A DNA stretch of 64,000 nt from Promethearchaeota archaeon (GTDB lineage: Archaea > Asgardarchaeota > Lokiarchaeia > Sigyniarchaeales > SOKP01). How positions within the stretch are numbered: position 1 is the stretch's first letter; each line of letters opens with the position of its first letter. A program made the position numbers and the translations under genes. The stretch covers positions 1 to 64,000 of the forward strand of contig JBHLOY010000002.1 of the NCBI GenBank assembly GCA_048939995.1, written 5' to 3'. Positions 21,312 through 40,033 of this stretch are shown here, piece by piece. The notes below the pieces were generated by a model that worked only from the letters and a program-made list of their open reading frames with translations, was not told the DNA's origin and did not search any database.

Positions 21312-21362
21312 TTTCATGGAAAGTCTTCTTAATCAAAAACAACTAAAATAAAGAGCATTATT

Positions 21363-22544
21363 ATGATAATAGATGAAAATCGAATAAGAAATAACTTAGA
21401 AATATTTACTTTTCCGAGGTTATCAGGAACAATTCATGAAAAAAAAGCTTTTAGCCTTGCCAAGAAAAAAATTGAAGAAATGGGCTTAATTCCTGAAATT
21501 CAAACCTTTAAATTTTCAACTTTTTATTCACGAATTTATCCTAAAATAGCGTTTCCTCTTACTTTTTGGATATTACTTACTCTGTTTTTAAATTTAAGTT
21601 CACTATTTGTGTTGATTAGTTTACTTTCTACTATTATCGCTTTCTTTCCCTTTTTTCTAATAACCAGAAATCCAGAAAATATTAAAATTGGTAAAATATT
21701 TGAATCTCAAAATCTTTATGTAAAGATAAAATCAAATTCCTCACAATTACCATCTAATAATGATAATGAAGACTATAATATTTTTTTCATAGCACACATA
21801 GATTCAAAAGGCCAGCGAATTACAGCAAGAACAAGAGGATTAAATATATTTTTATTTACAATATCTATATTTGGAATTACAGTGATATTAATCTTAAGGA
21901 CTTTTTTAGCTCTGTTTTATATGCTTTTAAATATCTTAGCAATGATTTTGCTTTCAATAAATTTAATCGCAACATTAATTTTAACTTCTAACACTACTAA
22001 TAATAAATCTAAGGGGGCTGTTGACGATGCTTCAGGTATAGCTTGTGTCTTAGAGCTATTAAACTACTTTTCCGCAATAAAAAAAAATAATAATAATTAT
22101 AACCTTTGGTTTGTACTAACAGGAGCAGAAGAATCAGGGACTATGGGAATTCGAAATTTTTATAAAATAATAAATAATATTAACCGGAAAAAGTCAATTG
22201 TTAACAATTTTGAATCTTTAGGAAAAAGCGTTAATGCTGTTATCAGTAAAAATTCTCTTAACAATAACTTAAGTTACTATAATTTCTTTAAAAAAAAAGG
22301 AAAAGAATATAGAATTAACACATTCATCAATCCAATTTCTCGAGGTATTCATACTGATGGAATCTATTTAAGTCGAAAAAATTTTAACCTTTTCGAATAT
22401 GGGAGCTCTGAGGTAGGTAGGTTTATGCATTCTGAGCATGATTCACTGGAAAATGTGGATGTTTCGTTATTGAAAAAGCTCTGTGAGTTTATTATAACCA
22501 CATTAGAATACTTTGATAATTCAGGCTCTAAATTTAATGAATAA
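21363..22544 (+). CDS. Membrane-bound M28-family peptidase
   Basis: AHIDS, GAVDDASG, GAEE, HSEHD; TM segments. Confidence 0.8.
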   Translation: MIIDENRIRNNLEIFTFPRLSGTIHEKKAFSLAKKKIEEMGLIPEIQTFKFSTFYSRIYPKIAFPLTFWILLTLFLNLSSLFVLISLLSTIIAFFPFFLITRNPENIKIGKIFESQNLYVKIKSNSSQLPSNNDNEDYNIFFIAHIDSKGQRITARTRGLNIFLFTISIFGITVILILRTFLALFYMLLNILAMILLSINLIATLILTSNTTNNKSKGAVDDASGIACVLELLNYFSAIKKNNNNYNLWFVLTGAEESGTMGIRNFYKIINNINRKKSIVNNFESLGKSVNAVISKNSLNNNLSYYNFFKKKGKEYRINTFINPISRGIHTDGIYLSRKNFNLFEYGSSEVGRFMHSEHDSLENVDVSLLKKLCEFIITTLEYFDNSGSKFNE

Positions 22545-22657
22545 AAAGTGAATATTCCATCAAAAAGAGTTGAAAGATTATTATCTAAACTTTAATTACA
22601 ATAGAAAATTTAGACTACATAATATAATTCTTTCAAACTTAACATGATTAATTAAAC

Positions 22658-23962
22658 TTGAGTAAAATGAAAATGCAAGAGAAAATTATTGATGATAAAA
22701 TTCATGAAAAAATGACATTGGAAAATGTATTTAAAATTTTTAATGATAATGTCTTTCCGATGTTGAATGATGAGGAAAAGGAGTACTGTAAAGAACTTCA
22801 GAATTTTTGTTTGGAGCTCCATCCAAAAATAGATAAATCTAAAGATGTGTATGAATTATTTCCAGAATTAGGAAAACATGGTTATTTACAACGAATAAAT
22901 GAGTGGAGAGATTTTACTCCATATGGAATGAAAAAAGAAATTTTATTGGGAACCCATCTCTCCTTATTAGACCCCCAACTTGAACTGGCAAGATTAGCAA
23001 GTGGAATATTGGCAGGAAACCCCACATTTCATTACTATACCCATGGTGGCACTGGAGATACTATACAAAAAGTTCAGGATGAGCTTATGTCTGGTCGAAA
23101 GATTGGGTGCATTGGAATAACGGAACCTGCAAGAGGTTCTGATGCAGTCAACATGACTACTATTTGTACAAAAACCGATGATGGAGTCATTTACAATGGT
23201 GAGAAAGTATATACCACTAATGGTCCTAAAGCAGATTATTTTTGTTGCTATGGAGTTTACGACGAAGCTCAGCCAAGAGACACAATGGTGCAAGCTATGA
23301 TAAAACGTGAATTTGGAGTTCGAACAGAGCGTCTAAAAATTAATTCAGTTCCTCGTGTGCATATTGCTCATACCATTTTAAACAATGTAAAAGTCCCAAA
23401 AGATTATGTTTTAGCTGATGATGGATTAGGATATGTAAGATTATTTGAAGGATTAGTTCCTGAACGATTAGGTATAGTGAATTAAGCAATTTCTGCTTTC
23501 ACGCTTAAAATGGGTTCAGGAATAGGTATTTGTTGGGCAGGATTAATATATGGGATTATCTATACTAACCTAAGGCAACAATTTGGAAAACCAGTTATCA
23601 GATATCAAGGTGTAGGCTATGGATTAGCAGATTTGCTTACAAAATCAACTGCCGCAACAAGTTTAGCACTTCAGGCAGCAACTATCTATGATGAAAAAAT
23701 CCTTTTTGCTGATAAACCTTCAAAAGATGCAGAGAAATGGTGCGCTGCAATTTCTTCGCAGGGAAAGTATTATACAGCAAAGCTTACACACGATATTTGT
23801 TATGAAGTACAACAGCATATGGGGGGAGTTTCTGTAACAGATAATACCCCTGTGGATGAGTTAACGGATGTAAGCAAAATTGAAGAAGTCATTGGTGGGG
23901 CAAGAAATATACAACTACTCTTAATTCAATCCCAGATTCAAAGATTTCTAAGATTAATATAA
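22658..23962 (+). CDS. Acyl-CoA dehydrogenase interrupted by a 33-nt BHB intron (join 22658..23475, 23509..23962; about 423 aa)
   Basis: ORFs 22658-23485 and 23510-23962 are in the same frame and are the N- and C-terminal halves of one ACAD (ITEPARGSD, GEKVYTTNG, ERL, RQQFGKP, QHMGG); removing the intron gives ERLGIMGSGIG. Confidence 0.88.
23476..23508 (+). other. Putative BHB-type mRNA intron (33 nt)
   Basis: Central helix AGGU(23470-73)/GCUU(23503-06); bulges AUA(23474-76) and AAA(23507-09); intron stem GUGA/UCAC plus AAGCA/UGCUU; exon stem UUCCUGAAC(23457-65)/GUUCAGGAA(23514-22); contains in-frame UAA. Confidence 0.8.
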
Positions 23963-23985
23963 TTATCAATAAATTTTTTTATTTT

Positions 23986-25716
23986 TTAATAGTTTTTCCA
24001 CCAAGAAATATCTAATTCATAATTTTCTTGAGAAATTGGATAAATCGCAGCTAATTTTTCGAGTTCTATCCTTGCTTCTTTTGCTATCTTTTCTAATTTG
24101 ATTAAAAAGAAGTCATCTGAAAACGCTTCTTTCATAGTTCCAATGGCATCATAAAAGTTTTCTAAATAATTTCCGTAATATTTCATGTATCTACAAAATT
24201 TTTTAGCATTCATAATTTTTACATTCTTTTTATATGGAATCACGTTCTTTTTTAGAATTGCCTCTGATTCATCAATATTTAAAGCTACAATAATTAACTG
24301 TCTATTTAATGATTGATAACCTTTTTTACATTTATGATAAAACACTCTTTTTTTAGTAGAGATAGTATAGTCAATATTTATAATATCAAATGATGATTTA
24401 ATAATTACATTATCCACAGAAGTCAAACTACCATTAAATCGATTTGGCATTACCTCAAAATATCCTTTTATATCATGATTTAATGTATAATCAATAAAGA
24501 TGTATTCTAAAATCCAGTGTATATATTTTCCTATGAGATAATGTCTTTCTGAATTATCATTGTAAAATTTTATAACCCAAGATTTGAATTTCCAACCTTT
24601 TTCTTGAAACAAAGATTTCATTCTATTTTTTATAGTTGTTGGATCTGGACCTTCTCCAAAATTTTCCTCTAAATAATCACTTACAGCTGTAAAATTACCT
24701 AATTCTTCATACAGGGATTTCCATTCTTTTACTTCTTCATTACTATATAGTCCAACCTTTTTATTATCTTCAACCCACATATCAAAGTCCAATCCTCTAA
24801 ATTGGAATTCTTCTTTTAATCTCCTTTTAATATTTTTAGAATCAGGAGATTGACCTGTATTTCGATTTAAGAAATTGCTGATTGCTAAGAAACTCCCGAA
24901 TTCTTCGAATAGTTTAATCCATAATTCTAAATCACTCTTATCGTACTTAAAGCGTCCTTTAGAATACTTCTCTTCCCATTCGTCGAAATCCCACCCCTCC
25001 TTATTAGCTAGCTGAAAAATATGATTTTTTAGAACATGATGATCTATACTAATAACATTTTCTACAGCACGATAAGAACCCCATTGTTCATATAATTTCT
25101 TCCATTCTTTGGCATCAGAAAAATTATAATTTGGTAAAAAATAATTTGGGTTAACTCTTTTAAAATAAGCTTTCCAAGAACCGAAATCTCTACCTTCACT
25201 TACTAATTTTTCTTTAATCCTAATTGCTATTGTCTTATAATCAGGACTCTTTTTATTGTTATTAGCTAATATTCGAGAAATTTCTAAGAAACTCCCTACT
25301 TTTTCGTACATACTTATCCATACATTGACTTCTGAATCTTTATAATGAAATCCTCTCTGATATTTTTTGTATTTGTTAAACCATTTATTAAAATCTCTCC
25401 CTTCTTGTTGAAACTTATTCTCTAAATTTCTTTTTAATTTTCTTCGCTCAATGTGATAACCATCATTTTCCAGTTTTCTACATACTGCTCTAATACTTCC
25501 TTGATCCTCATACAAAGATTCAGAATGTTTTAAAAAATCAAGATTATATTCATTATCATAAAATGATCGCATTAAATTAGAACCGCATTTATAACAAAAA
25601 TAGTTACCATCATTTTCCCCATAAATTTCTTTAATTTTAGAGGAGAAGATATTCCAACCACATTTTTTGCAGTGGAAGATTGGTGGTTTATCAGTATATT
25701 CTTTATACATAGTCAA
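23986..25716 (-). CDS. Zn-ribbon + five approximately 60-aa helical repeats + putative PD-(D/E)xK-like C-terminal domain
   Basis: CKKC...CYKC; repeated W-x-x-[LM]-[YF]E-x-x-G[SN][FY] ... G-x-[DK]F-x-x-W units; C-terminal VDNVII...NIDYT. Confidence 0.65.
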   Translation of the reverse strand: MTMYKEYTDKPPIFHCKKCGWNIFSSKIKEIYGENDGNYFCYKCGSNLMRSFYDNEYNLDFLKHSESLYEDQGSIRAVCRKLENDGYHIERRKLKRNLENKFQQEGRDFNKWFNKYKKYQRGFHYKDSEVNVWISMYEKVGSFLEISRILANNNKKSPDYKTIAIRIKEKLVSEGRDFGSWKAYFKRVNPNYFLPNYNFSDAKEWKKLYEQWGSYRAVENVISIDHHVLKNHIFQLANKEGWDFDEWEEKYSKGRFKYDKSDLELWIKLFEEFGSFLAISNFLNRNTGQSPDSKNIKRRLKEEFQFRGLDFDMWVEDNKKVGLYSNEEVKEWKSLYEELGNFTAVSDYLEENFGEGPDPTTIKNRMKSLFQEKGWKFKSWVIKFYNDNSERHYLIGKYIHWILEYIFIDYTLNHDIKGYFEVMPNRFNGSLTSVDNVIIKSSFDIINIDYTISTKKRVFYHKCKKGYQSLNRQLIIVALNIDESEAILKKNVIPYKKNVKIMNAKKFCRYMKYYGNYLENFYDAIGTMKEAFSDDFFLIKLEKIAKEARIELEKLAAIYPISQENYELDISWWKNY

Positions 25717-25833
25717 AATCTAAATTTGAAAAAACTTACTGAATAGTGTAAGTTGTTATATTTAAATAAAAAAAATAATGAGTATCTCAAAACAGAGAAT
25801 TATAGCTTTTAACCAATTTAAATGAGAACAAAA

Positions 25834-27024
25834 TTATTTTTTCATCTTTACAAAATCTCCAGATTTCATTAATTCACAAGGTTTAAGATAATTTTTTCCA
25901 GTCCTTTCTGCAATATCTTTGAGCAGTATGGACCATTTATTAAAATTATGTACTCCCACACTAAATGGACCGGGCATATTGGTTCCTTTTAATATAACAT
26001 CATCAATGATTTTGTAACCAGCAATAATTCCTTCTTCCAGAAGCTTGCAACCTTCATTTAATTCAATGGCTAAATTGATTTCAGGATCAAATAAACCTGC
26101 TTTTTTGCTCAAATTTATTTTCGGAGTTCCTTTCGTCCAATCATAAAAACCTTTTCCCGTTTTTTTTCCTAAATTTCCTTCTGCTACGAGTTTAGTAAGT
26201 ACTTTACCAGGAGCAAAATCAGAAGATATGTATGTTTCATAACTCTTCATGCTATTATAACTAACATCTATTCCAAGATAATCAGTTAATTGACATGGAC
26301 CCATTGAAACTAGCGGTCCTGCTCCAGCATCAGCATCAATCTGCTCCCATGGAATGTTCATTTCATATGCTTTGTCGAAAATCCAATTTGTATAAATCGT
26401 TGTAGGGATTAATAATCTATTAGCAATAAATCCTGGACTCTCTTTTTCAATTCGTACTGAAAGCCTTTTTCTTTTAACGCAAGGTAATTTTTCACCAAGG
26501 GCTACACACATATCTAGAACTTCATCAGAAGTTTTTTCTCCTTTCATTACTTCAACACAACATTGAATAGCTACTGGTGGAAAAAAGTGCATACCAATAA
26601 CCTTATCAGGTCTTTTTGAATCTTCTGCAATGTCAGTTATTCTAAAGGTTGATGTATTTGAGGCAAAAACACAATGGGGAGGTGAATGTTGCATAACTAC
26701 ATTACATACTTTTTTTTTAATCTCCATCTTCTCCACTACCGCCTCAAAGACAAAGTCAGCATCTTTGACTGCAGATGGTAAATCAATAGATTTTGTACAT
26801 TTTTTCATTAGATCACTAACGAGAATACCTTCTCCCATGTTTCCCTTAATTTTAACTTTTTCCAAGCCTTCATGAATCTTTATTAACCCATTCTCTACGA
26901 TTTTCTCATTTAAATCGATTAGAGTGACGTAATAATCTGCCATTAAGGACACCTGAGCAATTCCTTGGCCCATCACACCTGCCCCAACCACACAAACGTT
27001 TCTGATATTATTAATATCTAACAT
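25834..27024 (-). CDS. 3-hydroxyacyl-CoA dehydrogenase
   Basis: GAGVMGQG, EAVVE, ASNTS, GMHFF, PGFIANR, GKKTGKGFY. Confidence 0.9.
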   Translation of the reverse strand: MLDINNIRNVCVVGAGVMGQGIAQVSLMADYYVTLIDLNEKIVENGLIKIHEGLEKVKIKGNMGEGILVSDLMKKCTKSIDLPSAVKDADFVFEAVVEKMEIKKKVCNVVMQHSPPHCVFASNTSTFRITDIAEDSKRPDKVIGMHFFPPVAIQCCVEVMKGEKTSDEVLDMCVALGEKLPCVKRKRLSVRIEKESPGFIANRLLIPTTIYTNWIFDKAYEMNIPWEQIDADAGAGPLVSMGPCQLTDYLGIDVSYNSMKSYETYISSDFAPGKVLTKLVAEGNLGKKTGKGFYDWTKGTPKINLSKKAGLFDPEINLAIELNEGCKLLEEGIIAGYKIIDDVILKGTNMPGPFSVGVHNFNKWSILLKDIAERTGKNYLKPCELMKSGDFVKMKK

Positions 27025-27096
27025 TGGTTAATAAAATGATATTATTTCTATTATTCTTTAAATGTATAAGTCAAGTACTAGTTAATTATTAAAAAA

Positions 27097-28401
27097 TTAG
27101 TTATTTAATGCTGAATTCAACTGATTCAGAGCATTGAAAACATAATCTTCGATTTCTTCTTCTGTATGAGGTGGTTTATAGTAATGGAAGTGGAAATGAA
27201 TCCTATTTTCAATAGTAAAAACTGCTAAAACAAGAGCATTTAAAATTCCCGGGGAGACTCCACCATATATATTCTCGACTATAAAGTTATCAGATCTTAA
27301 TAAAATATTGAATTTATCTAAGGATCCAAGATTAGTAACTCCAAAAGGTTGACTTTTACTAGCTAATTCAAGATATATGGGTCCAATCTCCTTAATGGCT
27401 TTCAATGGAACTACTCTCGAAATTGTTTGGAAAACTTTAAACACACTTTTGTTTCGTAGATTTTTATTTAACTTTTTATGATACTTTTTAGCGTTTTTCC
27501 AAAAACCTTGTTGATTTTTATATTTTTTTTTAATAAGCAATCCACCAGCAAAACAACCTACTGATTGACCCACATTATATGCTAGTCTCTTCCTCAAATT
27601 AACAGGATTATTAATAATCGGAAAATCTGGGAGAAAAAGCGTACATAATGCGCTATGCACAGTTATCTTCTTTTCCTTGCATTTATTAATTAATGCCTGA
27701 GATTGAATATCACTTAAAATCCAAGCATAAGTCATAAACTTCTTATTTGTAAAATCTTCAATTATTAATTCTTCTTGCACCTTATGGCCTTTTACCAATC
27801 TTTGTTTCAATCTATAAATTTTTACAAATCTTTTGAGAAACCATACATCTCTGTAATATTTTCTTGGAGTCTTAGGTATTGCTTTCTGAATTTCTGGAGG
27901 TAAGATATCTTCTAAATCTTTTACTAATTCCTGTGTTTTAACTTTTAAATTCGGTTTATTCATAAATTCAATAATATCTTTAAAAAGGAATACCATTGAC
28001 ATGCCATCAGCTATTACATGCTGCATAGTTATAATTAAATCAAATTTTTCCTTTGAGATCAAAACTTTTACGCGTATTAAAGGAACTGAGCAATCTATTC
28101 CTGTTTCAAATGGAGTTATAAATTCTTTTTCAATAATTTTTTTATATTGTTCCTCTTCAGATCTATGCGTAATTTCTAATGGAATTTTACCGATTTTCTC
28201 CCAAATTAGATAAGGATGTTGATTTTCATCCACAATCAATTGAGCTTGAAGTAAAGGATGCTTTTGTTGAATCTTATCCAATGCATTCCTTAATATTGCC
28301 TCTTGAATATCACCTTTAATTGTAGTTGACATCGAGATATTGTAAGGTTGACCTAACGTCCAATTTAGATATTCCAATTCATTTAGTTTTCGTTTATGCA
28401 T
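27097..28401 (-). CDS. Condensation-domain / CoA-dependent acyltransferase (PapA5/AATase-like)
   Basis: QHVIADG (HxxxDG), PVNLR, VTNLG. Confidence 0.75.
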   Translation of the reverse strand: MHKRKLNELEYLNWTLGQPYNISMSTTIKGDIQEAILRNALDKIQQKHPLLQAQLIVDENQHPYLIWEKIGKIPLEITHRSEEEQYKKIIEKEFITPFETGIDCSVPLIRVKVLISKEKFDLIITMQHVIADGMSMVFLFKDIIEFMNKPNLKVKTQELVKDLEDILPPEIQKAIPKTPRKYYRDVWFLKRFVKIYRLKQRLVKGHKVQEELIIEDFTNKKFMTYAWILSDIQSQALINKCKEKKITVHSALCTLFLPDFPIINNPVNLRKRLAYNVGQSVGCFAGGLLIKKKYKNQQGFWKNAKKYHKKLNKNLRNKSVFKVFQTISRVVPLKAIKEIGPIYLELASKSQPFGVTNLGSLDKFNILLRSDNFIVENIYGGVSPGILNALVLAVFTIENRIHFHFHYYKPPHTEEEIEDYVFNALNQLNSALNN

Positions 28402-28462
28402 AGTAGAATCCAGCTGGTTATGTAATTGAAATTAACAATCCATATTTCGGGTTAAGTTTAAT

Positions 28463-29296
28463 TTGGCTATTATATTTAAGCATTGTGTAAGGTTAATTAT
28501 ATCATTTTTTATTAGAAAATTTTTAGATATAGAGTTGAAAAAGAAAATAATATTAATTGCTCATCGAGGAGCAAGTAATACTGCTCCTGAAAATACTTTA
28601 AAAGCGTTTACAATGGCTATTGAATTAGATGCAGATTATATTGAATTTGATGTAAGAATATCTAAAGATGGGGAGCTGATAATTATTCACGACCCAGATG
28701 TGTTCCGCACGACTCATAAACTTGGATTTGTGAAACAATTTTCTTTAAACAAAATTAAAAAATTAAATGCTGGAAATGGAGAGAAAATACCTACTTTAGA
28801 GGAATTACTGATTGAAACTAAAGGAAAAATTAATTATATGTGTGAGATAAAAGTTAAGAACATCTCTGGAAAAGTATTAAGTATTTTAAAAAACCATAAT
28901 GTCTTAGATTCAACAATTTTAATTTCATTTAAACATAACGAACTTTTAAAAAGTCGAAATATGTATCCTGATTTGAAATTGGGAGCAATAATACCTTCAA
29001 GATTAGGATGGATTACAAACTGGTTTATAAAAAAAAGACTCATCTCATCAATAAGTCAAAAAAGTTTTTTTTCCATCAACGCATTTTTCCCATTGGTTAA
29101 TAGGAAATTTGTAGATTTTTCTCATGAGAAGGGTCTTAAAGTTTTTGCTTGGACAGTAAATTCAAAAAGAAAGATGAAGAAATTAATTAAATTGGGGATT
29201 GATGGAATTTTGACAAATGATATTAGCCTTTTAAAGGATGCTTTGAATGAATTCACTGATATCAGAAATAAAAATAAAGATGTCTTAAATGATTAG
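28463..29296 (+). CDS. Glycerophosphodiester phosphodiesterase (true start probably near 28534)
   Basis: IAHRGAS..APENT, IEFDV, IPTLEE, AWTVN, GIDGILTN. Confidence 0.9.
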   Translation: MAIIFKHCVRLIISFFIRKFLDIELKKKIILIAHRGASNTAPENTLKAFTMAIELDADYIEFDVRISKDGELIIIHDPDVFRTTHKLGFVKQFSLNKIKKLNAGNGEKIPTLEELLIETKGKINYMCEIKVKNISGKVLSILKNHNVLDSTILISFKHNELLKSRNMYPDLKLGAIIPSRLGWITNWFIKKRLISSISQKSFFSINAFFPLVNRKFVDFSHEKGLKVFAWTVNSKRKMKKLIKLGIDGILTNDISLLKDALNEFTDIRNKNKDVLND

Positions 29297-29353
29297 TATT
29301 AAATGGTTACTTGGTATAATATATCTAGAAAAATAATAGTTTAAATATGAAAA

Positions 29354-30640
29354 TTGAAATCTAAGAATTTTCTCACTTCTAGTTTGATACTAATATTATG
29401 TTTTAGCTCTTTAACCCCATTCATATCGGTTGCATCGTTTGGTTTTCAAAATAATAGAATTAATTTGAAATCCAATGCGGCAGAGGAATCATGGATTATT
29501 CAATTAGATCATGATGGAAGAAATATGGCATTTGATTCAAATAATTGTATTTATATCGCTGGATGGAGTAATCTCATCAAGTATAATACTTCAGGAATTC
29601 AATTGTGGAATAAAGGATTAAATGGTATCTTGGATGAGCCCATAATTAAAACTGATTCTACTAATAACGTGTATTTAGCAGGTTATTATGAAAACCAAAC
29701 ACTTTCTTGGAATTGGACAATTTTCAAATTTAATTCTATGGGAGATTTACTATGGCAGAAAGTATTTGGGCAAGTTAATATTAGATTCATTACTGATTTT
29801 GCTGTAGATTTAGAAGATCATGTTTATATTTATGGCCTATTGACATCAGATAATTTGTTTGTAATAAAATTTAATAAAACTGGCAGCCAATTATGGTTTC
29901 ATGAATTTGAAGCCATTGGTTTATTTGATGAGAGTTCAAATATTTTAATTGACTCAAATTACAATATTATAATCTCGGGAAGCTCTTTGGTGGATATTAT
30001 TAATTATACTTCAATAGATTGGGTAAGATCATATAATGGGTCTAGGGATTTGCAGTGGTCCATTACTTATGACTGTACATCTTTTCCTATACTAGAATTA
30101 GATTCACTAAATAACGTAATTTCAATTGCAAGTACTTGTTATGAATTGGATTTAATTAAGTATGACAATTTTGGTAACTCGGTTTGGAATTATTCGTTAA
30201 AATCCCAATTTTTAAATATGATGGCATATCATGGTCCAGCCCCGACGATGAAACATCTCTATCATTTAACATTGGATTCATCTGATAACATCTATATTGG
30301 TTGGGATATTGCAATACCGGATGATATATATACATCAGATGTATTATTAATCAAAATCAATAGTTCTGGAAGTTTTAAATGGTATTTAACGTGGGGGGGT
30401 CCAAATGACGATTATTTAGGGAAAATCGGTGCAGATTTTGATAGTAATATTTATATATTAACTGGAAATTGTTTGATAAAAAATCCAGTTAATAACAACA
30501 AATCACTGGTTGGAGCTAACCTATGGAACTTCTACTTCATTCTTTTTGGAATTTCTTGTTTTGTTTCTCTAATTTCATTATATTTTATCATCAGACCTAA
30601 AATTAGAAGAAAGTTCAGTAAATCAACAAATCAGAAGTAA
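29354..30640 (+). CDS. Secreted, membrane-anchored beta-propeller (SBBP-like) protein
   Basis: Signal peptide; repeated DS-x-x-N-[IV]Y-[IL]-x-G and K[YF]N-x-x-G-x-x-x-W; C-terminal TM plus basic tail. Confidence 0.75.
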   Translation: MKSKNFLTSSLILILCFSSLTPFISVASFGFQNNRINLKSNAAEESWIIQLDHDGRNMAFDSNNCIYIAGWSNLIKYNTSGIQLWNKGLNGILDEPIIKTDSTNNVYLAGYYENQTLSWNWTIFKFNSMGDLLWQKVFGQVNIRFITDFAVDLEDHVYIYGLLTSDNLFVIKFNKTGSQLWFHEFEAIGLFDESSNILIDSNYNIIISGSSLVDIINYTSIDWVRSYNGSRDLQWSITYDCTSFPILELDSLNNVISIASTCYELDLIKYDNFGNSVWNYSLKSQFLNMMAYHGPAPTMKHLYHLTLDSSDNIYIGWDIAIPDDIYTSDVLLIKINSSGSFKWYLTWGGPNDDYLGKIGADFDSNIYILTGNCLIKNPVNNNKSLVGANLWNFYFILFGISCFVSLISLYFIIRPKIRRKFSKSTNQK

Positions 30641-31146
30641 TATGTAGACATAAAATTAGTTGGGTAAAAAAATAACATACTATAGGAAGCAAGATTCGCT
30701 ATTAAGGAAATTAAAGAGGACCTTTTTAAATTTGGTTGGTTTTTTATTGAATTTCTATAAAAAAGGCTTTGAAATTCTAAATAGTATAAAAAGCATTCGA
30801 TTAATGTCATTAGCGGAATAATTATAAGAACATAGAGCAATGCGAATTCACTATAGAATGCAAAAAAAAAGTAAGAAATTATACCGACGGGAGGAAACAT
30901 AACTAGATTAACTAATACTATTGAAACAAATAATTTTCTAGACTTAAGAAAAGCATAAACTACGCCAAATTCAATTATTATTATAATAAAACTCGTAATT
31001 AAGATATTCATAATTATTAAAATTGGCTGATCATAGAAAGGTACTGGAATCATTAGAGAAAATACTAATGGAATTACGGCTACGATTAGGGTAATATAGA
31101 GTAGTGTAAAATAAATAATGATAGAAATATACCTTTTGTATCTCAC
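30631..31146 (-). CDS. Membrane protein
   Basis: Highly hydrophobic 171-aa ORF. Confidence 0.6.
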   Translation of the reverse strand: MRYKRYISIIIYFTLLYITLIVAVIPLVFSLMIPVPFYDQPILIIMNILITSFIIIIIEFGVVYAFLKSRKLFVSIVLVNLVMFPPVGIISYFFFAFYSEFALLYVLIIIPLMTLIECFLYYLEFQSLFYRNSIKNQPNLKRSSLISLIANLASYSMLFFYPTNFMSTYYF

Positions 31147-31197
31147 ATTGATTTTCTAGGTAAAGAACATTTAAAAGACTTTGCTAAGAAAAAAAAA

Positions 31198-31650
31198 TTA
31201 AGTTGATTTTTTACTTAAGATTTCTTTTGCTGGAAAAATTAAGCCAAGAACGAGAAGTAGAGCTCCGATAACAAAAATAAACATACTACCCCCGTAATAA
31301 CCAATGAAGATCTTGTATATTATAAAAGTTGCCCAAGGGATACTACCCCCTAATAGAAGAACATACCATGCCCATTTTTCTCCTTTCCGATAACTCATGT
31401 GATTGATAAAGAGAACAAAGATACCACAAGCTAAAAAAATAATCCCAATTAACTTTTTTGTTATAATATACATTTGCGCGAAAACAGGATCGCTAGCTAA
31501 ATATGTTGCATAAGTTATGCCTGTAAAAACCTGAAAATCACTTACAAACATTATCTCTGTTGCAAATATCCATAATAGGGACATTACTTCTATGTAAGCT
31601 CCCATAGCTGAAATAAAAAAAGACCCAATTTTCAATTTTGATGCTTTCAT
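31198..31650 (-). CDS. Membrane protein (4 TM)
   Basis: Hydrophobic segments, YRKGEKWAW motif, GAGGT SD. Confidence 0.7.
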   Translation of the reverse strand: MKASKLKIGSFFISAMGAYIEVMSLLWIFATEIMFVSDFQVFTGITYATYLASDPVFAQMYIITKKLIGIIFLACGIFVLFINHMSYRKGEKWAWYVLLLGGSIPWATFIIYKIFIGYYGGSMFIFVIGALLLVLGLIFPAKEILSKKST

Positions 31651-31720
31651 ATTTTTTACCTCTAGAATATTAAAGCACTTTAAATTTTAAATGATTAATT
31701 ATCTTTAAAAGAATTTAATT

Positions 31721-32110
31721 CTATTTGATTTTATGAGATATTTTATGAACAATCCACCATTTCCCATCAATTTTCATAAGATTAAAATAATCAATGTACC
31801 CAACTTCTTCACATTCAATTTTAAGTTTTACGGCACCTATTTTTTCAGTTACATCGATGTAATAAAACTCTGTTTTCCAACTTAAACTTACGTTAATCTC
31901 ATTAGGATTATACCAAGATAAATACTCATTTTTATCTACAATTCTTAGCCTTCCATCATCATGAAAAAGATAAAATTTCCATTCATCATGTAAAAGTTCT
32001 TTGTAAAGTTCTGGGTCACTTTTTACATGGCCTTCATGATAATATTTCAGAATTTCTTCTTTGATTATCTTTTTTTCCATTTCTGCATTTCTATTTGGTA
32101 AATTCTTCAT
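31721..32110 (-). CDS. NTF2-like (putative lumazine-binding) protein
   Basis: YIDYFNLMKIDGKWWIVHK C-terminal motif. Confidence 0.75.
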   Translation of the reverse strand: MKNLPNRNAEMEKKIIKEEILKYYHEGHVKSDPELYKELLHDEWKFYLFHDDGRLRIVDKNEYLSWYNPNEINVSLSWKTEFYYIDVTEKIGAVKLKIECEEVGYIDYFNLMKIDGKWWIVHKISHKIK

Positions 32111-32274
32111 TATCTAGTTCACCTTAAAAATACAATTTGATTTTTAAATTCATTTAATTATTTTGCTAAATTTTACCTATTTTATATTACATTATAAGAG
32201 AATTGGATGAATTTAATAAAATAATTGAAAATATAAAAAGCTTAATCTATTCCCCTTATCTATTCATTTATATT

Positions 32275-33039
32275 CTAAATTAGAACTAATCCTATTAAGG
32301 ATGTAACAATAGATTTTACGCTTATTATAAGCAGAAAGCAAAAAATTGCTAATTGAAATAACCTTAGGGAAATTTTGGGGGTTATTCTATGTCCAAGTTT
32401 AGTACCCATAAAAATTATTGGAAAAGCTAATAAAAATACAACAAGTAAATTGATTGGAAATATCCCTCCAAATATATAAAATGGAACTCTTGAGATAGAT
32501 AATACAGTGCCGATTGCAGCAAAATTTCCAATAAAGTCCTCTTTATAATGCCCAGTTTTTTCTAATAAAACAACATTAAGAGGCCCTGCAGCACTGATTA
32601 ATCCCGAAAGTAGACCATATGTAAATCCACCTAAGAAAATAATAGGAGAAGATGATTTTAAGTGTCGTTTAACTTCAAGTTGGCTTGCATTTTTGAGATA
32701 AAGATTAATCTTATAAGAGGAATAAATTAACACAAAAACTCCGAACACTAATTCAATCCACTCTGTTCGAATATTAATAATCAAATAAGTCCCAAAAATT
32801 GTAGCTGGAACTCCTAACGAAAGAAAGCGAAAAAAGTATGCATTATCCAAGTATTTGTGATACTTAACAAAGTTAATCAAAGCTGGGAATAATCCCCAAA
32901 TGTTCACTAGAATTACCGATGCTTTAATTCCAATTATTGGACTTATAATCGGAATTAGGATCAAGGCATCTCCAAATCCAATAATTCCATATACCATACT
33001 TGAAAAAAAAATCGGAATTAGAAGTAAATATTCTAGCAT
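32275..33039 (-). CDS. Sulfite exporter TauE/SafE family
   Basis: GIIGFGDALI N-terminal motif, about 8 TM. Confidence 0.8.
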   Translation of the reverse strand: MLEYLLLIPIFFSSMVYGIIGFGDALILIPIISPIIGIKASVILVNIWGLFPALINFVKYHKYLDNAYFFRFLSLGVPATIFGTYLIINIRTEWIELVFGVFVLIYSSYKINLYLKNASQLEVKRHLKSSSPIIFLGGFTYGLLSGLISAAGPLNVVLLEKTGHYKEDFIGNFAAIGTVLSISRVPFYIFGGIFPINLLVVFLLAFPIIFMGTKLGHRITPKISLRLFQLAIFCFLLIISVKSIVTSLIGLVLI

Positions 33040-33153
33040 CTTAAAACGATATAATTTATGAACTCTCTATTCCCCTAAATTGACTTTTAAAATTTATTCA
33101 AAAATTTAAGTTTTTATTATTTCAAGATAATAGATAGTAGATAAATAAGAACT

Positions 33154-33897
33154 TTACAATTCATCTAATCTTTTTTGAATCGAGCGTTGTGTTTTACCAA
33201 ATAATAGTTTTTTGTTTTTTTCAATAAACTTCCAGCTAAATCCTTTAAGGCTGCTTAAGGGACCTTCAATTCCTTTGGGATTCCCAGTTCTTGTAAAAGT
33301 GACTTCAGTATGTTTGATAGCTTTAATAACTTGATGAGGTGTTTTAAATTGTTCAATTAAAGTTTTTGCTTTTTTCGGACCAATGTCAATAAAGCCCTCA
33401 ACGACGTAAGTTCTTCTCTCTTTGATACTCATTCCTTTTGGGGCCTTCCGGGCTAGCAAAGGAACCCCATCCTTGACTTGTTCTCTATATGCTATACGTT
33501 CTACAACTATTGCAGTGTCCTCTATATTTCTTGTAGGAATTAATGAAATCCCTAATTTGTATGATATAAAAGCAAGAGCTCCATATATAGAGGAAATATT
33601 CATTCCCACATTCTCGAAAACATTATCGTTTAGGCCTTCAATTATTAAAATAGGAGTAATGTAAGTTTCTTTTAACCTCCTCATCTGTTCGAATAAGCGA
33701 TTATCCATTATGGAAGATACGAAATCAAACCCTTCTTTTCTTTCTATTGCTACTTCATTAGAAACAACTATGTCTGCTATGTCCAATTGTTTAGTTTCAT
33801 ATGTTATTCGATCTTTTTTACCTTCCAATATACTTGCTAACTTTTGTTCTCGATTATCAAGAATAATGTGTGGTATTTTATTGTTCTGGAACATCAT
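33154..33897 (-). CDS. ERCC4-domain (XPF/Mus81-like) structure-specific nuclease with HhH
   Basis: LDNRE, ADIVVS..VAIERK, DIGPKKA. Confidence 0.85.
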   Translation of the reverse strand: MMFQNNKIPHIILDNREQKLASILEGKKDRITYETKQLDIADIVVSNEVAIERKEGFDFVSSIMDNRLFEQMRRLKETYITPILIIEGLNDNVFENVGMNISSIYGALAFISYKLGISLIPTRNIEDTAIVVERIAYREQVKDGVPLLARKAPKGMSIKERRTYVVEGFIDIGPKKAKTLIEQFKTPHQVIKAIKHTEVTFTRTGNPKGIEGPLSSLKGFSWKFIEKNKKLLFGKTQRSIQKRLDEL

Positions 33898-33925
33898 TTT
33901 TCAATTCTTTAGTTTAAGACAGAAA

Positions 33926-34438
33926 TCAATCGATATGTAATTCTTTTTGAGAATTTTTAAACAAAAAAGCTTTGAATTGTTTAAATCTAAATAATTTATT
34001 ATTTATAAAAATATAGCTTAAAATCGCTAATCCAATAACTTCGGTAATATAATTAATTGGCTGATTTAATAATTCAGTCAACCAAGAACGAAGTGGGTCA
34101 TCAATATAAGAAAATTGATAAGGGATTAATGGAAAGAATAAAGGTATATCAGGTAAATCTAGTAATAAATGGATAAAACTGCCCGCAAAATAAGAGATCG
34201 CAAGTAATTTGTTTTTCCTAGTCCCAAAAAATACCAATAGAGAGCTGACAAAGACGAAAAGAAGTGTATGGGAATACCCTCTTCCAGAACTGATTCCTAA
34301 AAACATAAGAGACTTGTCAATTACATCAGGAATTACTGATCCAATAATCAGAGTTAATCGATTAACCGCTAATCTTCTCTTAATTTGAGGTAATTCAAAA
34401 ATAAGTAATGGAATGGCTAAATGAAATAATGGAAAAAT
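33926..34438 (-). CDS. Membrane-bound metal-dependent hydrolase (YbcI/DUF457-like), probable ATT start at 34438
   Basis: Frame stays open 44 codons upstream of the annotated ATG: (M)FPLFHLAIP...IGSVIPDVIDK; later RGYSHTL and HLLLD; GGAGG 6-7 nt upstream of ATT. Confidence 0.75.
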   Translation of the reverse strand: MFPLFHLAIPLLIFELPQIKRRLAVNRLTLIIGSVIPDVIDKSLMFLGISSGRGYSHTLLFVFVSSLLVFFGTRKNKLLAISYFAGSFIHLLLDLPDIPLFFPLIPYQFSYIDDPLRSWLTELLNQPINYITEVIGLAILSYIFINNKLFRFKQFKAFLFKNSQKELHID

Positions 34439-34623
34439 AGAAATCCCTCCAGTACTAAAACCCGTACAAGAATCTAAAAAATAATATTATTTCTGGGAGG
34501 TAGAATATGATTATTGAAATTATAATAAACTCAATTGAAATTTTTAAAGCCCTTTTCATTAAGTAAGAGTATGAAATAATTTTTTGCTGTTCCTTGTCTG
34601 ACATGCTCATTCTTTAGTAAATT

Positions 34624-35424
34624 TTATTTAAATTTATATTCTTTTATAACTTCTTCTACTGTATAATTTTGATGGATAATCTTAGTTAAAGCACTGACCA
34701 ATTTAGTAGGATCATCTGATTGAAAGACATTTCTACCAAATGCTACTCCGATACCCCCCGCTTGAACTGATTCATAGGCAACTTGAAGTAAATCAACTAC
34801 GGTATCCATTTTTGGACCTCCAGCAATTAATACCGGAATAGGCACACTTTCAACAATATATTTAAATGAATCAATATCTCCTGTATAATTGGTTTTTACA
34901 ATATCTGCTCCTAATTCTGCTCCTACCCTAACAGCAATATTTACTACTTCGGGATCATTTTCATTTGTGATTTTTTGACCTCTAGGATACATCATAGCTA
35001 AAAGTGGCATACCCCACTCTCTTGCAGTTTGAATTACTTTCTGAGCATCTTGAAGCATTTGTGGCTCTTCATCCGCTCCAATATTTAGATGAATTGAAAC
35101 TGCATCAGCACCCATTTTTACTGCAGTTTCTACAGAGCATACTAACACTTTCCGATCTGGATGTGGCCCTAAGTTAGTAGCTCCAGACAAATGAACGATG
35201 AGTCCAATATCTTTCCCATATCTTCTATGACCTGCTTCAACCATACCTGAATGCATTAAAACTGCATTTGCTCCACCTAAAGCAACTTTTTCTACCATAC
35301 TAGCTAAATCTTCAAGCCCCTTTATAGTACCTAGGGTAAGGCCATGATCCAAGGGAATTATTATAGTTCTTTTTGTTTTTCTATCTATTATTCGTTCAAT
35401 TCTGATATTCTTTCCTACATTCAA
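34624..35424 (-). CDS. DhnA-type class I aldolase (2-amino-3,7-dideoxy-D-threo-hept-6-ulosonate synthase AroA'-like)
   Basis: [35 protein letters not shown]. Confidence 0.85.
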
Positions 35425-35511
35425 TTATAAAGCACTTTTATTCTAAAAGTAAATTATTCATAATTAATGAGAATAAACATTTAAAATTATACAAATCAAA
35501 AAAGAAGTGAA

Positions 35512-37083
35512 TTACCAAGGTCTTCTGAGCGTAGTCATTCTACTCATTGTAGATTTATTAGGATAATCTAAATTATAATGAATCCCGCGACTTTCTTTTC
35601 TGGAGATTGCACTTACTATTATTATTTTTGCCACGGTTGCTAAATTTCTTAATTCAAGTAGGTCTCTTTCGATCTTAAAATCCCAATAGTATTGGTTAAT
35701 CTCATCAAGGAGCAAGTTGATCCTCTTTTTGGCACGTTGCAATCTTAAATCAGTTCGAACAATTCCAACATAGTTCCAGCAGAATCGGCGTATCTCATCC
35801 CAATTCTGGGTGATAACCACCGCTTCTGTGGAAGGAACAGCATGTCCGGGTTCCCATCCCTTAAATTCGTTAACTTTTAAATCGGTTACTTGTTTTGCAA
35901 GAGTCTTTGCACATTCATTGGCACATACTAGGCCTTCCAATAAAGAATTACTAGCTAATCGATTTGCTCCATGTAATCCTGTACAAGCAGATTCTCCAAT
36001 AATATATAAATTTTTAACTTTTGTAGATCCATCAAGTTTAGTTAATACACCTCCACAACAATAATGTGCTGCTGGAACCACTGGAATTGGCTCTTTAGTA
36101 ATATCTATATTGAAATCCTTACAAGCCTCATATACTCCAGGGAAATGACTTCTAATAAAATCAGGACTCTTATATGATGCAATATCTAAGTAAACATAAT
36201 CGTCCCCAGATCTTTTGAGCTCAGCATCTATTGCTCTTGACACAATGTCGCGGGGAGCTAATTCCTTTAAAGGATGATAATTCTGCATAAATGCATTTCC
36301 TTTCAAATCTTTAAGAACCGCTCCCTCGCCACGCATCGCCTCAGTAATTAGAAGTGACTTGGCAAAAGGGTGATATAAACATGTAGGATGAAACTGATAA
36401 AATTCCATATTTGCAATTATAGCACCAGCTCGATATGCCATAGCAATTCCATCTCCAGAGGCTACATCAGGGTTTGTAGTATATAGATAAATTTTACCTG
36501 CTCCACCAGTAGCTAAAACAGTTACCTTAGATGCAATATTATGAATCTCATCAGTATTTTGATCCAAGACATATAACCCATCGCATCTGAAGTTGTTTGA
36601 AAATAAGTTAATTCCAACCCAATATTCATTAATCTCAATATTATCATATTTTTTTACCTCTTCAATTAACTTCAGTGCTATGTTTTGACCTGTTAAATCA
36701 TTTACATGAAGTATTCTCCTTTCAGAATGTCCTCCTTCTTTTCCTAGATCATATCGTCCATTCTCATCTTGAGTAAATTCAATACCCAAATCCATTAATT
36801 CTCTTATTCTTTCTGGTGCTTGGGTAATTATCCTTCTGACAATATTTTCATCGCATAAACCATCTCCAGCTACTATTGTATCTTGAATATGTTTTTCAAA
36901 ATTATCATTCTCATTCCAAACACAAGCAATCCCCCCTTGTGCATAAAATGTATTAGATTCTTTCAAGCCTTCCTTCGTAATTATCAAAATATTCTGATCT
37001 GGTGCTAATTGTGCTAATTTGATTGCCAATGTTAACCCAGAGATTCCTCCTCCAACAATTAATATATCAGTTTTAAGCTTCAA
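35512..37083 (-). CDS. nadB: L-aspartate oxidase
   Basis: AQGGIA, EGGHS..RILH, QFHPT, EAMRGEG, ELAPRD, GLHGANRLASNSLLE. Confidence 0.92.
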   Translation of the reverse strand: MKLKTDILIVGGGISGLTLAIKLAQLAPDQNILIITKEGLKESNTFYAQGGIACVWNENDNFEKHIQDTIVAGDGLCDENIVRRIITQAPERIRELMDLGIEFTQDENGRYDLGKEGGHSERRILHVNDLTGQNIALKLIEEVKKYDNIEINEYWVGINLFSNNFRCDGLYVLDQNTDEIHNIASKVTVLATGGAGKIYLYTTNPDVASGDGIAMAYRAGAIIANMEFYQFHPTCLYHPFAKSLLITEAMRGEGAVLKDLKGNAFMQNYHPLKELAPRDIVSRAIDAELKRSGDDYVYLDIASYKSPDFIRSHFPGVYEACKDFNIDITKEPIPVVPAAHYCCGGVLTKLDGSTKVKNLYIIGESACTGLHGANRLASNSLLEGLVCANECAKTLAKQVTDLKVNEFKGWEPGHAVPSTEAVVITQNWDEIRRFCWNYVGIVRTDLRLQRAKKRINLLLDEINQYYWDFKIERDLLELRNLATVAKIIIVSAISRKESRGIHYNLDYPNKSTMSRMTTLRRPW

Positions 37084-37206
37084 AGAAATCTTTTTAATAA
37101 ATTCATAAAGAAATATTAAAATACCAAAATGAAATTAAAATTTTATATCTTTTTGAAAAAATCATCATAATTTTTTTTTAAATTGTTAAATTTGTCTAAA
37201 CAAATT

Positions 37207-37731
37207 ATGGGAAAAATAAAAAACGTACTCTTTGTCTGTAGTGGAAATAATAAATAATTACCCATAAATACTGCAAGGAGTCCAGCAGCAGAATATCTCT
37301 CGAAATGGTTAAAAGAAACAAAATTCAAAGAAGATTTAAAGGACGTTCATTTTAACTCTGCTGGTCTTTACAGTTATTATAAAACTCCCCAAGAAGGCAC
37401 ATCTCATTATCTTGAATCAAAAGGTATTGATTTCAGCGATTTTAGGGGAAAAGTGATTACTGAAGAATTAATCAAAAAGCAGGACTTAATCTTAGGTTTT
37501 GAAGAAAAATGGCATATTAGAAAATTGAAAAGAAGATTTAAAAATCTGAAAGAGTTAGATAAAAGAATTTTCTTGTTATTAGATTTTGCGGGAGAAAAAG
37601 GAGACCTTGAAATTCCAGATCCCATTAATTTTGAACCAGAAGAGTATAGAACAACAATTAAAAGAATTGAAAAAGCATTACCTAAAGTATTACAAAAGAT
37701 AATCGATATAAATAAGACTGATCTAAAATGA
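37207..37731 (+). CDS. Low-molecular-weight protein tyrosine phosphatase/arsenate reductase family, interrupted by a 21-nt BHB intron (join 37207..37246, 37268..37731; about 167 aa)
   Basis: ATG 37207 gives MGKIKNVLFVCSGN, then TAA at 37255-57; the same frame resumes TARSPAAEY...SAG...QDLIL...IPDP; spliced P-loop is CSGNTARS. Confidence 0.88.
37247..37267 (+). other. Putative BHB/BHL-type mRNA intron (21 nt)
   Basis: Central helix GUGG(37241-44)/CCAU(37262-65); bulges AAA(37245-47) and AAA(37266-68); exon stems GUA/UAC and ACUCUUUGU(37227-35)/GCAAGGAGU(37273-81); short intron stem UAAU/AUUA with C37261 extra. Confidence 0.78.
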
Positions 37732-38204
37732 AAAAAATCAGAAATATTATCTTCATCTGTTTAGGAAACACTGCTAGATCACCTACAGCAGAATTTTTAG
37801 CAAAATTCTATGCAAAAAAGTATGATATTAAGCTTAATATTGAAAGTGCAGGTTTTATGAATGCTTTCTCTTATATGCAACCAGGATCCCAAAAATATTT
37901 GAATGCTAAGGGTATAGATCATTCGGATTTCAAACCTAAGATTCTTAGCAAACCTTTACTTGAAAAACAAGATTTAATTTTAACAATGGAGCGGTCGCAA
38001 TCAATTGAAATAATTAGAAATTTTTCTTCTATCAGTAATATTAACGAAAAAGTCATGACTCTAAAGGAATTTAATGGGGACTTCTCTAATCGAGACATTA
38101 TGGATCCCTACTACACTAATTCTGATACTTACTTGAAAATATTAAAGATTATTGACATTAATATTGAAAATTTAATTCAAAAAATTAAAGAGAGAAATAA
38201 TTAA
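37728..38204 (+). CDS. Low-molecular-weight protein tyrosine phosphatase (intron-less tandem paralog)
   Basis: CLGNTARS P-loop, ESAG, DLILTME, DIMDPY; ATG overlaps the stop of the upstream paralog. Confidence 0.9.
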   Translation: MKKIRNIIFICLGNTARSPTAEFLAKFYAKKYDIKLNIESAGFMNAFSYMQPGSQKYLNAKGIDHSDFKPKILSKPLLEKQDLILTMERSQSIEIIRNFSSISNINEKVMTLKEFNGDFSNRDIMDPYYTNSDTYLKILKIIDINIENLIQKIKERNN

Positions 38205-38216
38205 ACCTATTTATGC

Positions 38217-38825
38217 TTAATGCTTCTTAAAAAGATTCTTTTTAGATAAGAGGCTTAACTCAGAAATTAACCAGCATACTTCTTCATAAGTGGCAGATGA
38301 TTTTAGAATTTCTTCTGATTTTTTCTTGATCTGATTTTCAGTGATTTTACCTTTTTCTTTTATAATAGCTAGTTGTAGTTTAGCAAGTTCTCTACATAAT
38401 TCTTTATAATCTCGTTTTTTCTGTGTTAATTCATATGCTGCTAAATTGATTTCTGCAATTAGATCTGGTTCTAATCCCGCTTCAATAAGTTCTTTAGTAT
38501 CCTCTATTTCTAATTCTAATTCAGGGCGTACTTCAATTATTCCATTATTAGCCCCCTTAGATTTATAAGTATCCATAATTGCTAAAAATCCTCCAAATTC
38601 TTGATTTTGCTGAATCACTTGAATTTTTGCTGGGATACTTCTTTCTCTATTAAGCTTATTAGCCCTATTTAAACTCAAATCCTTTTTCTTTTTAGAAGCT
38701 TTTTGGCCTTGCCATATATAAATTATGTTTACTCCATCAATGAGATAGACTCTAGTACTATCATTAAAGTTCAATTTTGCAGTTTTTCTTAGAGAACCAT
38801 TCTCAGCAACGTTATAAAAAGGCAT
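38217..38825 (-). CDS. Gelsolin-like domain protein
   Basis: VYLID..IIYIWQG..AS gelsolin-repeat signature plus helical C-terminus. Confidence 0.7.
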   Translation of the reverse strand: MPFYNVAENGSLRKTAKLNFNDSTRVYLIDGVNIIYIWQGQKASKKKKDLSLNRANKLNRERSIPAKIQVIQQNQEFGGFLAIMDTYKSKGANNGIIEVRPELELEIEDTKELIEAGLEPDLIAEINLAAYELTQKKRDYKELCRELAKLQLAIIKEKGKITENQIKKKSEEILKSSATYEEVCWLISELSLLSKKNLFKKH

Positions 38826-38905
38826 GTAATTTCGAATATCAGTTTTATAATATTATAATAAAAATAGCGGAACTTATTTTTAATTTTAAAGAAAAAAAAG
38901 ATATA

Positions 38906-40033
38906 TTACTCACACTTTTCTGGATTTAACTTACAAAAGTTAATAGATGAAACAATATCATCTTTACCAATCAGGCCTAAGATGTAATCTGCCCCATGTT
39001 CTTTTACAACAATCAATTCTGGCTTTTTATCTATTTTTAAAAATGTTTTCATTACATCACTTCCTAAATCATTGTCATAGATCATAGGAAAATCAGCAAT
39101 ATTTCTCATAATGTAACCAACAATCATCCTTGATCTTTCATTAATCGGAATTCTTTTTATATCATTAATATGAATAATACCCACAATCTGACTATTTTTC
39201 ACCACCGGAAAATATGACTTCTTATATAGCATGAAATAATGATCAATAGCTTCAGATATAGTTAGAGTAAAAGGTATTTCCATTCTCGGTAGACTTACCA
39301 TATCCTTTGCATTTAAATGTGAGAGTGCTTCTTGATTTACAACTTGAAGGTATGATTGTTTTGTTTGATTATTTAAAAAAGTTCCAATTATAATCATCCA
39401 AAACCCATTTAGAAGTCCAAAAAGTAATATTTGAATAAATCCGAAAGCCATAAGACCATAAGCAAAGAAAGTCCCTATCCTTGATGCTGTCTTTGTTGCA
39501 GAGATCAAATTCTTACGCCTCGCCCAGAGAAAAGCTCTTAGAATTCTACCACCATCGATAGGAAATGCAGGAAGTAAATTAAACAATCCCAAGCCAACGT
39601 TCGATACACCAGAATAGAATAAGGTTATAATAACTCCAACAGGAAAAGGTATTGGTATGGTGAAAAGTATTATAAGCAATAGACCTCCAAGTATTAAACT
39701 AGAAAGTGGTCCGACTGCAGATATTATTATTTCACTTTTAGGAGTTTTAGGTTCCTCTTCGATTTTTGAGGCTCCTCCAAATAAATACAGTTCAATCTCT
39801 TTAACTTTTAATCCATATTTCTGGGCTACTATAGAATGAGCCAGTTCGTGTAATAAAATAGAGCCTAGAATTATAACCCCATTTATAATTCCAACTAATA
39901 ATAAATCAATAAAAGATGCCATAGGAACTAGAGATGCATAAAAATTTGCTGCATAAAATCCAACTAAACCTATTATCAGTAGAGTGCTTAAATGTAATTT
40001 AATTTCTATTCCATAAATGGATCCAATCTTAAT
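38906..40033 (-). CDS. Site-2 protease (M50) with CBS domains, probable ATT start at 40033
   Basis: HELAH, NLLPAFPIDGG, CBS pair; 37 more in-frame codons (KIGSIYGIEIKLHLS...) upstream of the annotated ATG; AGGTGA SD 5 nt before ATT. Confidence 0.85.
   Translation of the reverse strand: MKIGSIYGIEIKLHLSTLLIIGLVGFYAANFYASLVPMASFIDLLLVGIINGVIILGSILLHELAHSIVAQKYGLKVKEIELYLFGGASKIEEEPKTPKSEIIISAVGPLSSLILGGLLLIILFTIPIPFPVGVIITLFYSGVSNVGLGLFNLLPAFPIDGGRILRAFLWARRKNLISATKTASRIGTFFAYGLMAFGFIQILLFGLLNGFWMIIIGTFLNNQTKQSYLQVVNQEALSHLNAKDMVSLPRMEIPFTLTISEAIDHYFMLYKKSYFPVVKNSQIVGIIHINDIKRIPINERSRMIVGYIMRNIADFPMIYDNDLGSDVMKTFLKIDKKPELIVVKEHGADYILGLIGKDDIVSSINFCKLNPEKCE

Follow-up and report, generated by a model that had tools for sequence, protein, structure and literature searches.

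The closest described counterpart of the elements treated here is the intron in the cbf5 pre-mRNA of Sulfolobales and Desulfurococcales (Watanabe 2002; Yokobori 2009, PMC2738675). It is the only bulge-helix-bulge (BHB) intron in a coding sequence that we found in the literature searched, and PMC2738675 mentions that other coding-sequence introns had been predicted. We have analyzed a 64,000-nt stretch (the window) of the genome of the Promethearchaeota archaeon GCA_048939995.1, a member of the Lokiarchaeia, in which an acyl-CoA dehydrogenase (ACAD) gene and a low-molecular-weight (LMW) protein-tyrosine-phosphatase-like (PTP) gene are interrupted by short inserts. The window is C17:1-64000 of this source genome (G000; 3.75 Mb, 38 contigs, 30% GC). 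Both inserts are highly likely to be archaeal BHB introns that contain no open reading frame (ORF), and the whole explanation, with lateral spread and homing included, is the most likely one.

Like the cbf5 intron, these are short ORF-less inserts at catalytic sites, with BHB motifs that are often relaxed and would be cut after the second nucleotide of the bulge; a hetero-oligomeric splicing endonuclease (EndA), some lengths that are multiples of three and a patchy distribution are also common to both. The cbf5 intron, however, occupies one gene in Crenarchaeota and is proven by cDNA and in vitro work, whereas here about 12 unrelated genes of one Asgard genome are concerned, read from DNA and accompanied by evidence of lateral spread. 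The Haloferax HVO_1309 intron (Schwarz 2020, PMC7714728) is another EndA-processed BHB intron in an mRNA, but it lies in a 5' untranslated region and affects no reading frame. Heavily interrupted Asgard tRNA genes (bioRxiv 10.64898/2026.10.13.758758) share repeated gains of short BHB-bounded inserts and two EndA paralogues; that preprint deals with tRNA only, the word mRNA being absent from its text, and found no general route of arrival, while a nuclease-linked route is suggested here. Collaborative homing in phages (T3/T7-like phages, a cyanophage and the ICP1 terminase; PMC10448857, PMC2988022) likewise involves an intron without an ORF and, next to it, the gene of a free-standing nuclease, with co-inheritance and polar co-conversion of exon sequence. 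The phage introns are self-splicing group I introns and cleavage has been demonstrated; the present ones are predicted protein-spliced BHB introns on a cellular chromosome, paired with an unclassified protein of putative PD-(D/E)XK fold. Our literature search, which left most subscription journals outside, turned up nothing published on introns in the mRNAs of Asgard archaea.

Structure of the two inserts

The ACAD gene (22658-23962) and the PTP gene (37207-37731) are each broken by an insert whose length is a multiple of three and which contains an in-frame TAA (Table 1). A sequence-only reading of this DNA had reported as much, and had placed the splice junctions after the second nucleotide of two 3-nt bulges; these junctions proved correct. 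Two registers of excision restore the ACAD product and six the PTP product, and in each gene a single one of them gives a complete 4-bp central helix with cuts at that position. In ACAD the helix pairs AGGU (23470-73) with GCUU (23503-06), including two G-U pairs, and the bulges are AUA and AAA; in PTP it pairs GUGG (37241-44) with CCAU (37262-65), and both bulges are AAA. Both have at least one flanking helix as well. By the rules of Marck and Grosjean neither is a full hBHBh' motif: ACAD has HBh', with a 10-bp exon stem separated by an internal loop, and PTP has hBH, which is also its minimum free energy (MFE) fold. A canonical motif arises by chance at a given site in 2-8% of trials (position and shuffle nulls).

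Without its insert ACAD reads PERLGIMGSGIG, the pattern found in 139 full-length homologues, and PTP reads CSGNTARS, the P-loop of uninterrupted homologues. Exon 1 of ACAD, which is 94% identical to orthologues lacking the insert, ends within the Ile273 codon and includes Glu269; this residue aligns without gaps with Glu254 of isovaleryl-CoA dehydrogenase, the catalytic base of that enzyme (PMC11153573). The ACAD insert follows four codons further on, and its placement next to a catalytic motif, like that of the PTP insert within one, was rightly seen in the earlier reading.

The source genome is metagenome-assembled (98% complete, 5% contaminated), and this could favour an assembly artefact, which the earlier reading had also allowed for. 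The ACAD insert is identical to the letter on 10 independent contigs, and the PTP insert on four among the matches listed; the assemblies concerned were made independently from several sequencing runs, and other species carry variant inserts. DNA runs SRR30758824-33, SRR34261160 and SRR24270828/31 contain this species. Such letter-for-letter repetition means that assembly error is not the cause, and we consider its probability negligible.

Distribution, covariation and selection

The ACAD insert is present in 3 of the 34 orthologues of the genus, with further cases in metagenomes; another of the 34 carries an unrelated BHB insert, also of 33 nt, at codon 383. Two other genera have ACAD interrupted at the same residue. 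The inserts in G073, G105, G074 and G144, and the EF-1alpha inserts of G018, G029 and G065 discussed below, are known from coordinates and stop codons alone. ACAD orthologues of other genera at G074:C2:20550-21833 and G144:C118:27980-29188 show an internal stop and 30-33 extra bases. The PTP P-loop site is interrupted in G000 and G019 and, in the neighbouring paralogue, in G010, G022 and G065, with intron sequences that differ. The PTP of G000 and G019 reads VCSGNTARS, as in the intron-bearing paralogues, while PTP orthologues read LCSGNT[SC]RS; this pattern hints at a transfer of the PTP intron region between paralogues.

At both sites the structure is kept under sequence change, with few independent variants. 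In the ACAD intron 98.9% of cells are paired (3/500 shuffles; 21-49% in slid controls) and in three pairs both partners are altered. The helices persist in a variant of 44 nt at this site, and the only variation within the central helix is between G-U and A-U. At the PTP site the central helix changes from GUGG/CCAU to CUGG/CCAG across five genomes, with G065 keeping three of the four pairs.

The in-frame stops, the existence of paralogues of ACAD and PTP and the ATG at the start of ACAD exon 2 would suit pseudogenes or, for ACAD only, two separate polypeptides. Purifying selection speaks against this: dN/dS is 0.04-0.06 for both ACAD exons in comparison with G019 (about 0.04 for exon 2) and 0.14 for PTP exon 2 between G000 and G019, two intron bearers that both have the stop. 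Values near 1, which the sequence-only reading had named as the mark of relaxed selection, are far from these. Since EF-1alpha, MetRS and uL11 are interrupted in the same way with no second copies found, and disrupting non-BHB inserts form no background in the genome (see below), loss of function or separate products are very improbable.

Predicted removal by the tRNA splicing enzymes

A search for endA and rtcB, as the earlier reading had proposed, found two EndA paralogues in G000, one alpha (C3, about 124.0-124.6 kb) and one beta-like (C28, about 98.2-98.8 kb), and an intact RtcB. The alpha paralogue is closest to the Aeropyrum enzyme, has the catalytic Tyr, His and Lys, and its K-P-R aligns with K44-P45-R46 of the A. 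pernix specific loop, which has been tied to relaxed substrates of EndA (PMC12397907). The G000 enzyme is intact and of the (alpha-beta)2 type, and is predicted to be able to cut relaxed motifs. The ACAD and PTP pre-mRNAs would fold into relaxed BHB motifs, the endonuclease would cut each bulge after the second base, and RtcB would join the exons to give messages for full-length enzymes. In all probability the two inserts are removed in this way, because of the covariation, the purifying selection, the presence of EndA and RtcB and the like interruption of essential single-copy genes. To that extent the claim of EndA/RtcB splicing stands, indirectly, for these two mRNAs. A group I or group II self-splicing intron was rejected: 21 and 33 nt are too short for a ribozyme core of hundreds of bases, and Rfam gave no match in 20000-40000 of the window. 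Any regulatory role of the introns would be speculation.

The inserts could instead be skipped in translation, by ribosome bypassing of the gene 60 type or by read-through. Phage T4 gene 60, a case of bypassing, also adjoins a homing endonuclease gene; a stop comes early in each insert, which also contains a hairpin, and in PTP an AAT codon is repeated at both ends of the insert. None of 11 inserts, however, has a landing codon matching the pre-stop codon that would restore the conserved junction, read-through would add 7-11 residues to P-loops, and bypassing leaves the BHB geometry and the covariation of the central helix unexplained. This alternative is very unlikely.

Other interrupted genes in the genome

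For EF-1alpha, PurA and MetRS, the one gene found in G000 is broken or cut short at an insert, while the corresponding genes of G008 and three complete genomes are intact; the sole uL11 gene found in G000 is likewise truncated. The inserts in these essential genes, 30-37 nt long, interrupt the GKST, WGDEGKGK and HIGH regions, and the register that restores the sequence is one with BHB geometry. As a side observation, the uL11 gene of G008 (G008:C28:32629-32833) is split elsewhere (profile 1-27 and 26-58).

A genome scan for split ORFs, with shuffled controls for BHB geometry, had been proposed. In a motif-free census based on about 3,080 reference proteins and covering about 960 kb or about 1,200 loci, a canonical BHB motif was found in 6 of the 8 frame-breaking insertions (null expectation 0.25-0.36) against 1 of the 20 open in-frame ones, three of the six positives having been targeted beforehand and two being the ACAD and PTP inserts themselves. 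The unbiased result of this census is that there are almost no non-BHB breaks. A reverse census over 0.8 Mb of G008 gave no intron. With the ab initio candidates (uL11, MoxR-like, CoA-transferase, PurM-like and DnaG) the total comes to about 11 in about 3,170 ORFs (0.35%). That splicing is common, as had been extrapolated from two cases in about 60 genes, is therefore not supported; the rate is a tenth of that, and the census has only 6 in about 1,200 loci. The ab initio scan by itself was noisy, with 286,075 raw candidates, and strict filters lost true cases. The 11 introns share little resemblance with one another, and no convincing further copy of the ACAD or PTP intron was found in the genome, tRNA genes included. 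Separately, ARAGORN found only 24 tRNA genes in the whole of G000, many with odd introns, which suggests multiply interrupted tRNAs.

Table 1. Coordinates of the interrupted genes, predicted introns and nuclease genes. Positions without a contig name are those of the window.
Feature	Position	Strand	Remarks
ACAD exon 1	22658..23475	+	Pfam PF02770; start TTG 22658 or ATG 22667
Predicted 33-nt BHB intron, ACAD	23476..23508	+	HBh'; in-frame TAA; internal hairpin
ACAD exon 2	23509..23962	+	Pfam PF00441
Cassette of ~1.85 kb between ACAD and 3-hydroxyacyl-CoA dehydrogenase genes	23981..25831	.	from alignment with L257
576-aa putative free-standing endonuclease	23986..25716	-	CxxC pairs near the N-terminus, then repeated units; C-terminal domain of probable PD-(D/E)XK fold
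PTP exon 1	37207..37246	+	13 codons + 1 nt; includes P-loop Cys
Predicted 21-nt BHB intron, PTP	37247..37267	+	hBH; in-frame TAA; interrupts P-loop Asn codon
PTP exon 2	37268..37731	+	Pfam PF01451 positions 10-142
LMW phosphatase paralogue, uninterrupted	37728..38204	+	orthologues in G010, G022, G065 have intron at same P-loop site
Decayed two-motif LAGLIDADG-like gene upstream of EF-1alpha	L161:2973-4320 (G000 C11:167553-169084)	-	broken within first motif
EF-1alpha insert	G000 C11:167345-167313	-	BHB-type, homology-supported
purA insert	G000 C7:109926-109897	-	BHB-type, homology-supported
metG insert	G000 C6:82172-82203	+	BHB-type, homology-supported
uL11 insert	G000 C23:129234-129198	-	BHB-type, homology-supported
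fwdA insert	G000 C17:377452-377423	-	BHB-type, homology-supported
MoxR-like candidate insert	G000 C7:20329-20358	+	geometry and motif only
CoA-transferase candidate insert	G000 C38:64707-64737	+	geometry and motif only
PurM-like candidate insert	G000 C23:175447-175418	-	geometry and motif only
dnaG candidate insert	G000 C11:487250-487217	-	geometry and motif only
Weaker ab initio BHB candidates	G000 C28:11910-11945 (+), C6:104273-104245 (-), C35:4542-4512 (-), C11:421825-421857 (+)		may be ordinary gene junctions

Probable lateral spread of the ACAD intron and putative nucleases beside it

The main addition of the present analysis is lateral spread with adjacent nucleases; the sequence-only reading mentions neither the adjacent nuclease gene nor the evidence for spread. 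A near-identical ACAD intron occurs on six separate branches of the tree, each with intron-free sisters, and an AU test on the first five of these branches rejects a single clade (p-AU 5e-7). In the 14 codons round the junction, synonymous identity between bearers is the highest of 232 windows (0.77 vs 0.53) and that between bearers and sisters the lowest (0.42 vs 0.80), while that among sisters is ordinary. In three pairs, GCA_004524515/G062, mgGa/G015 and JGI3300027893/G025, polar tracts extend from the intron site as far as the 3' end (p 2e-4, 3e-6 and 1e-3). These comparisons show an intron that appears to have moved between species as a patch of DNA together with its exon flanks. A search for a viral carrier of the ACAD intron gave no exact match.

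Directly after ACAD, and convergent with it, is the gene for a 576-aa protein that has no Pfam family. Its C-terminal domain is modelled with a pLDDT of 95, and nearly all top fold matches are PD-(D/E)XK nucleases, with middling scores (best Z 7.6, Foldseek E 0.006); E31, D45 and D59 of the domain are at least 90% conserved in 51 sequences. The cassette that holds the gene is absent from a close intronless relative (L257; 96% amino acid identity), and two distant lineages that bear the intron have homologues (62-63%) in this position. The family thus lies beside ACAD in 3 of 6 intron-bearing lineages and in none of the 30 intronless loci that had sufficient flank (Fisher p 0.003, from samples that are not independent); no nucleases were found among the genes scanned after intronless ACAD alleles. 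Another homologue also adjoins an ACAD end. In L262 (JGI 3300031257) a 40%-identical homologue is convergent to a CTP-synthase-like gene, and the family may therefore target several conserved genes.

A second family accompanies other introns. The codon-383 ACAD intron (L005/L112, L258) is followed by a gene for a 428-aa LAGLIDADG-domain protein at both informative loci; a 57% homologue of this gene lies at a contig end in G144. Upstream of EF-1alpha in G000 is a decayed LAGLIDADG-like gene, a call that depends on two motif-like segments read by eye, Pfam giving no family. G065 has an open 636-aa homologue, and close homologues are found directly upstream of EF-1alpha in G029, G018 and G065, which are the other insert-bearing genomes; such a gene adjoins 4 of 4 intron alleles against 0 of 35 without the insert. 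No nuclease partner was seen beside the PTP intron.

These pairings suggest that the neighbouring free-standing nuclease would cut intron-free ACAD alleles near the intron site, that the intron would shield its own allele, and that repair would copy the intron and often the nuclease gene too. Collaborative homing of this kind, with a putative nuclease acting on intron-free alleles and the intron as a shield, is probably how these BHB mRNA introns spread. Spliced introns might also spread without nucleases, by ordinary recombination between co-occurring lineages or through ancestral presence and many losses, with nuclease genes merely preferring the same intergenic spots. The nuclease is absent from half of the informative site-273 lineages, and in relatives a variety of unrelated genes occupies the gap after ACAD. 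All diagnostic flank bases lie in paired positions, so that the signal from the flanks could owe something to selection on the exon stem. Against this stand three independent pairings of nuclease and intron, intronless alleles without an adjoining nuclease, and co-conversion tracts that lead from the site of the intron in the direction of the nuclease; ancestral presence would require roughly 14 losses (hand count on the tree) as compared with 5-6 gains. Spread without nucleases is rather unlikely, though the least unlikely of the alternatives.

Several observations weigh against splicing and homing as proposed here. Both motifs are relaxed; the ACAD BHB fold lies 2.7 kcal/mol above the MFE and the three compensatory ACAD pairs all come from one variant. 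ACAD exon 2, opening with ATG, could be translated separately, and no protein identical to spliced ACAD is found among the 15 of 23 cluster members listed in public clusters. The case for splicing is read from DNA, and the census P values are inflated because the positives were partly targeted. With regard to homing, three intron-bearing ACAD lineages lack the nuclease, inspection by eye recognised no neighbouring nuclease for 9 of the 11 intron genes, and the 576-aa protein is a putative nuclease of middling fold score with a presumed target site. Co-conversion in G000 is local only, exon 2 having no long co-converted tract (p 0.3), and the genomes compared are related, hence not independent samples. 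One candidate for the spliced ACAD protein, the best cluster match, was rejected, since it is only 96% identical and sits on an ordinary intronless genomic contig.

Implications

The inserts are not spliceosomal introns, and an ancestral relation to these is unsupported here. On balance we lean towards a broader claim: that Lokiarchaeia splice at least 12 mRNAs, those of EF-1alpha, MetRS and ribosomal proteins included, by means of the tRNA endonuclease, that the introns, themselves without an ORF, invade catalytic sites that are conserved, and that they pass from species to species as shields, accompanied by at least two families of free-standing nucleases, of which one would be a new family of homing endonucleases with a PD-(D/E)XK fold. 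If the inserts are spliced, gene callers truncate such genes in public genomes, and archaeal relatives of the eukaryotes already run mRNA splicing by protein enzymes on multiple genes, essential ones among them. How the Asgard tRNA introns arrived was named an open problem by the 2026 preprint; the link to nucleases would offer a concrete route, open to testing, for the arrival and spread of tiny BHB introns that have no ORF.

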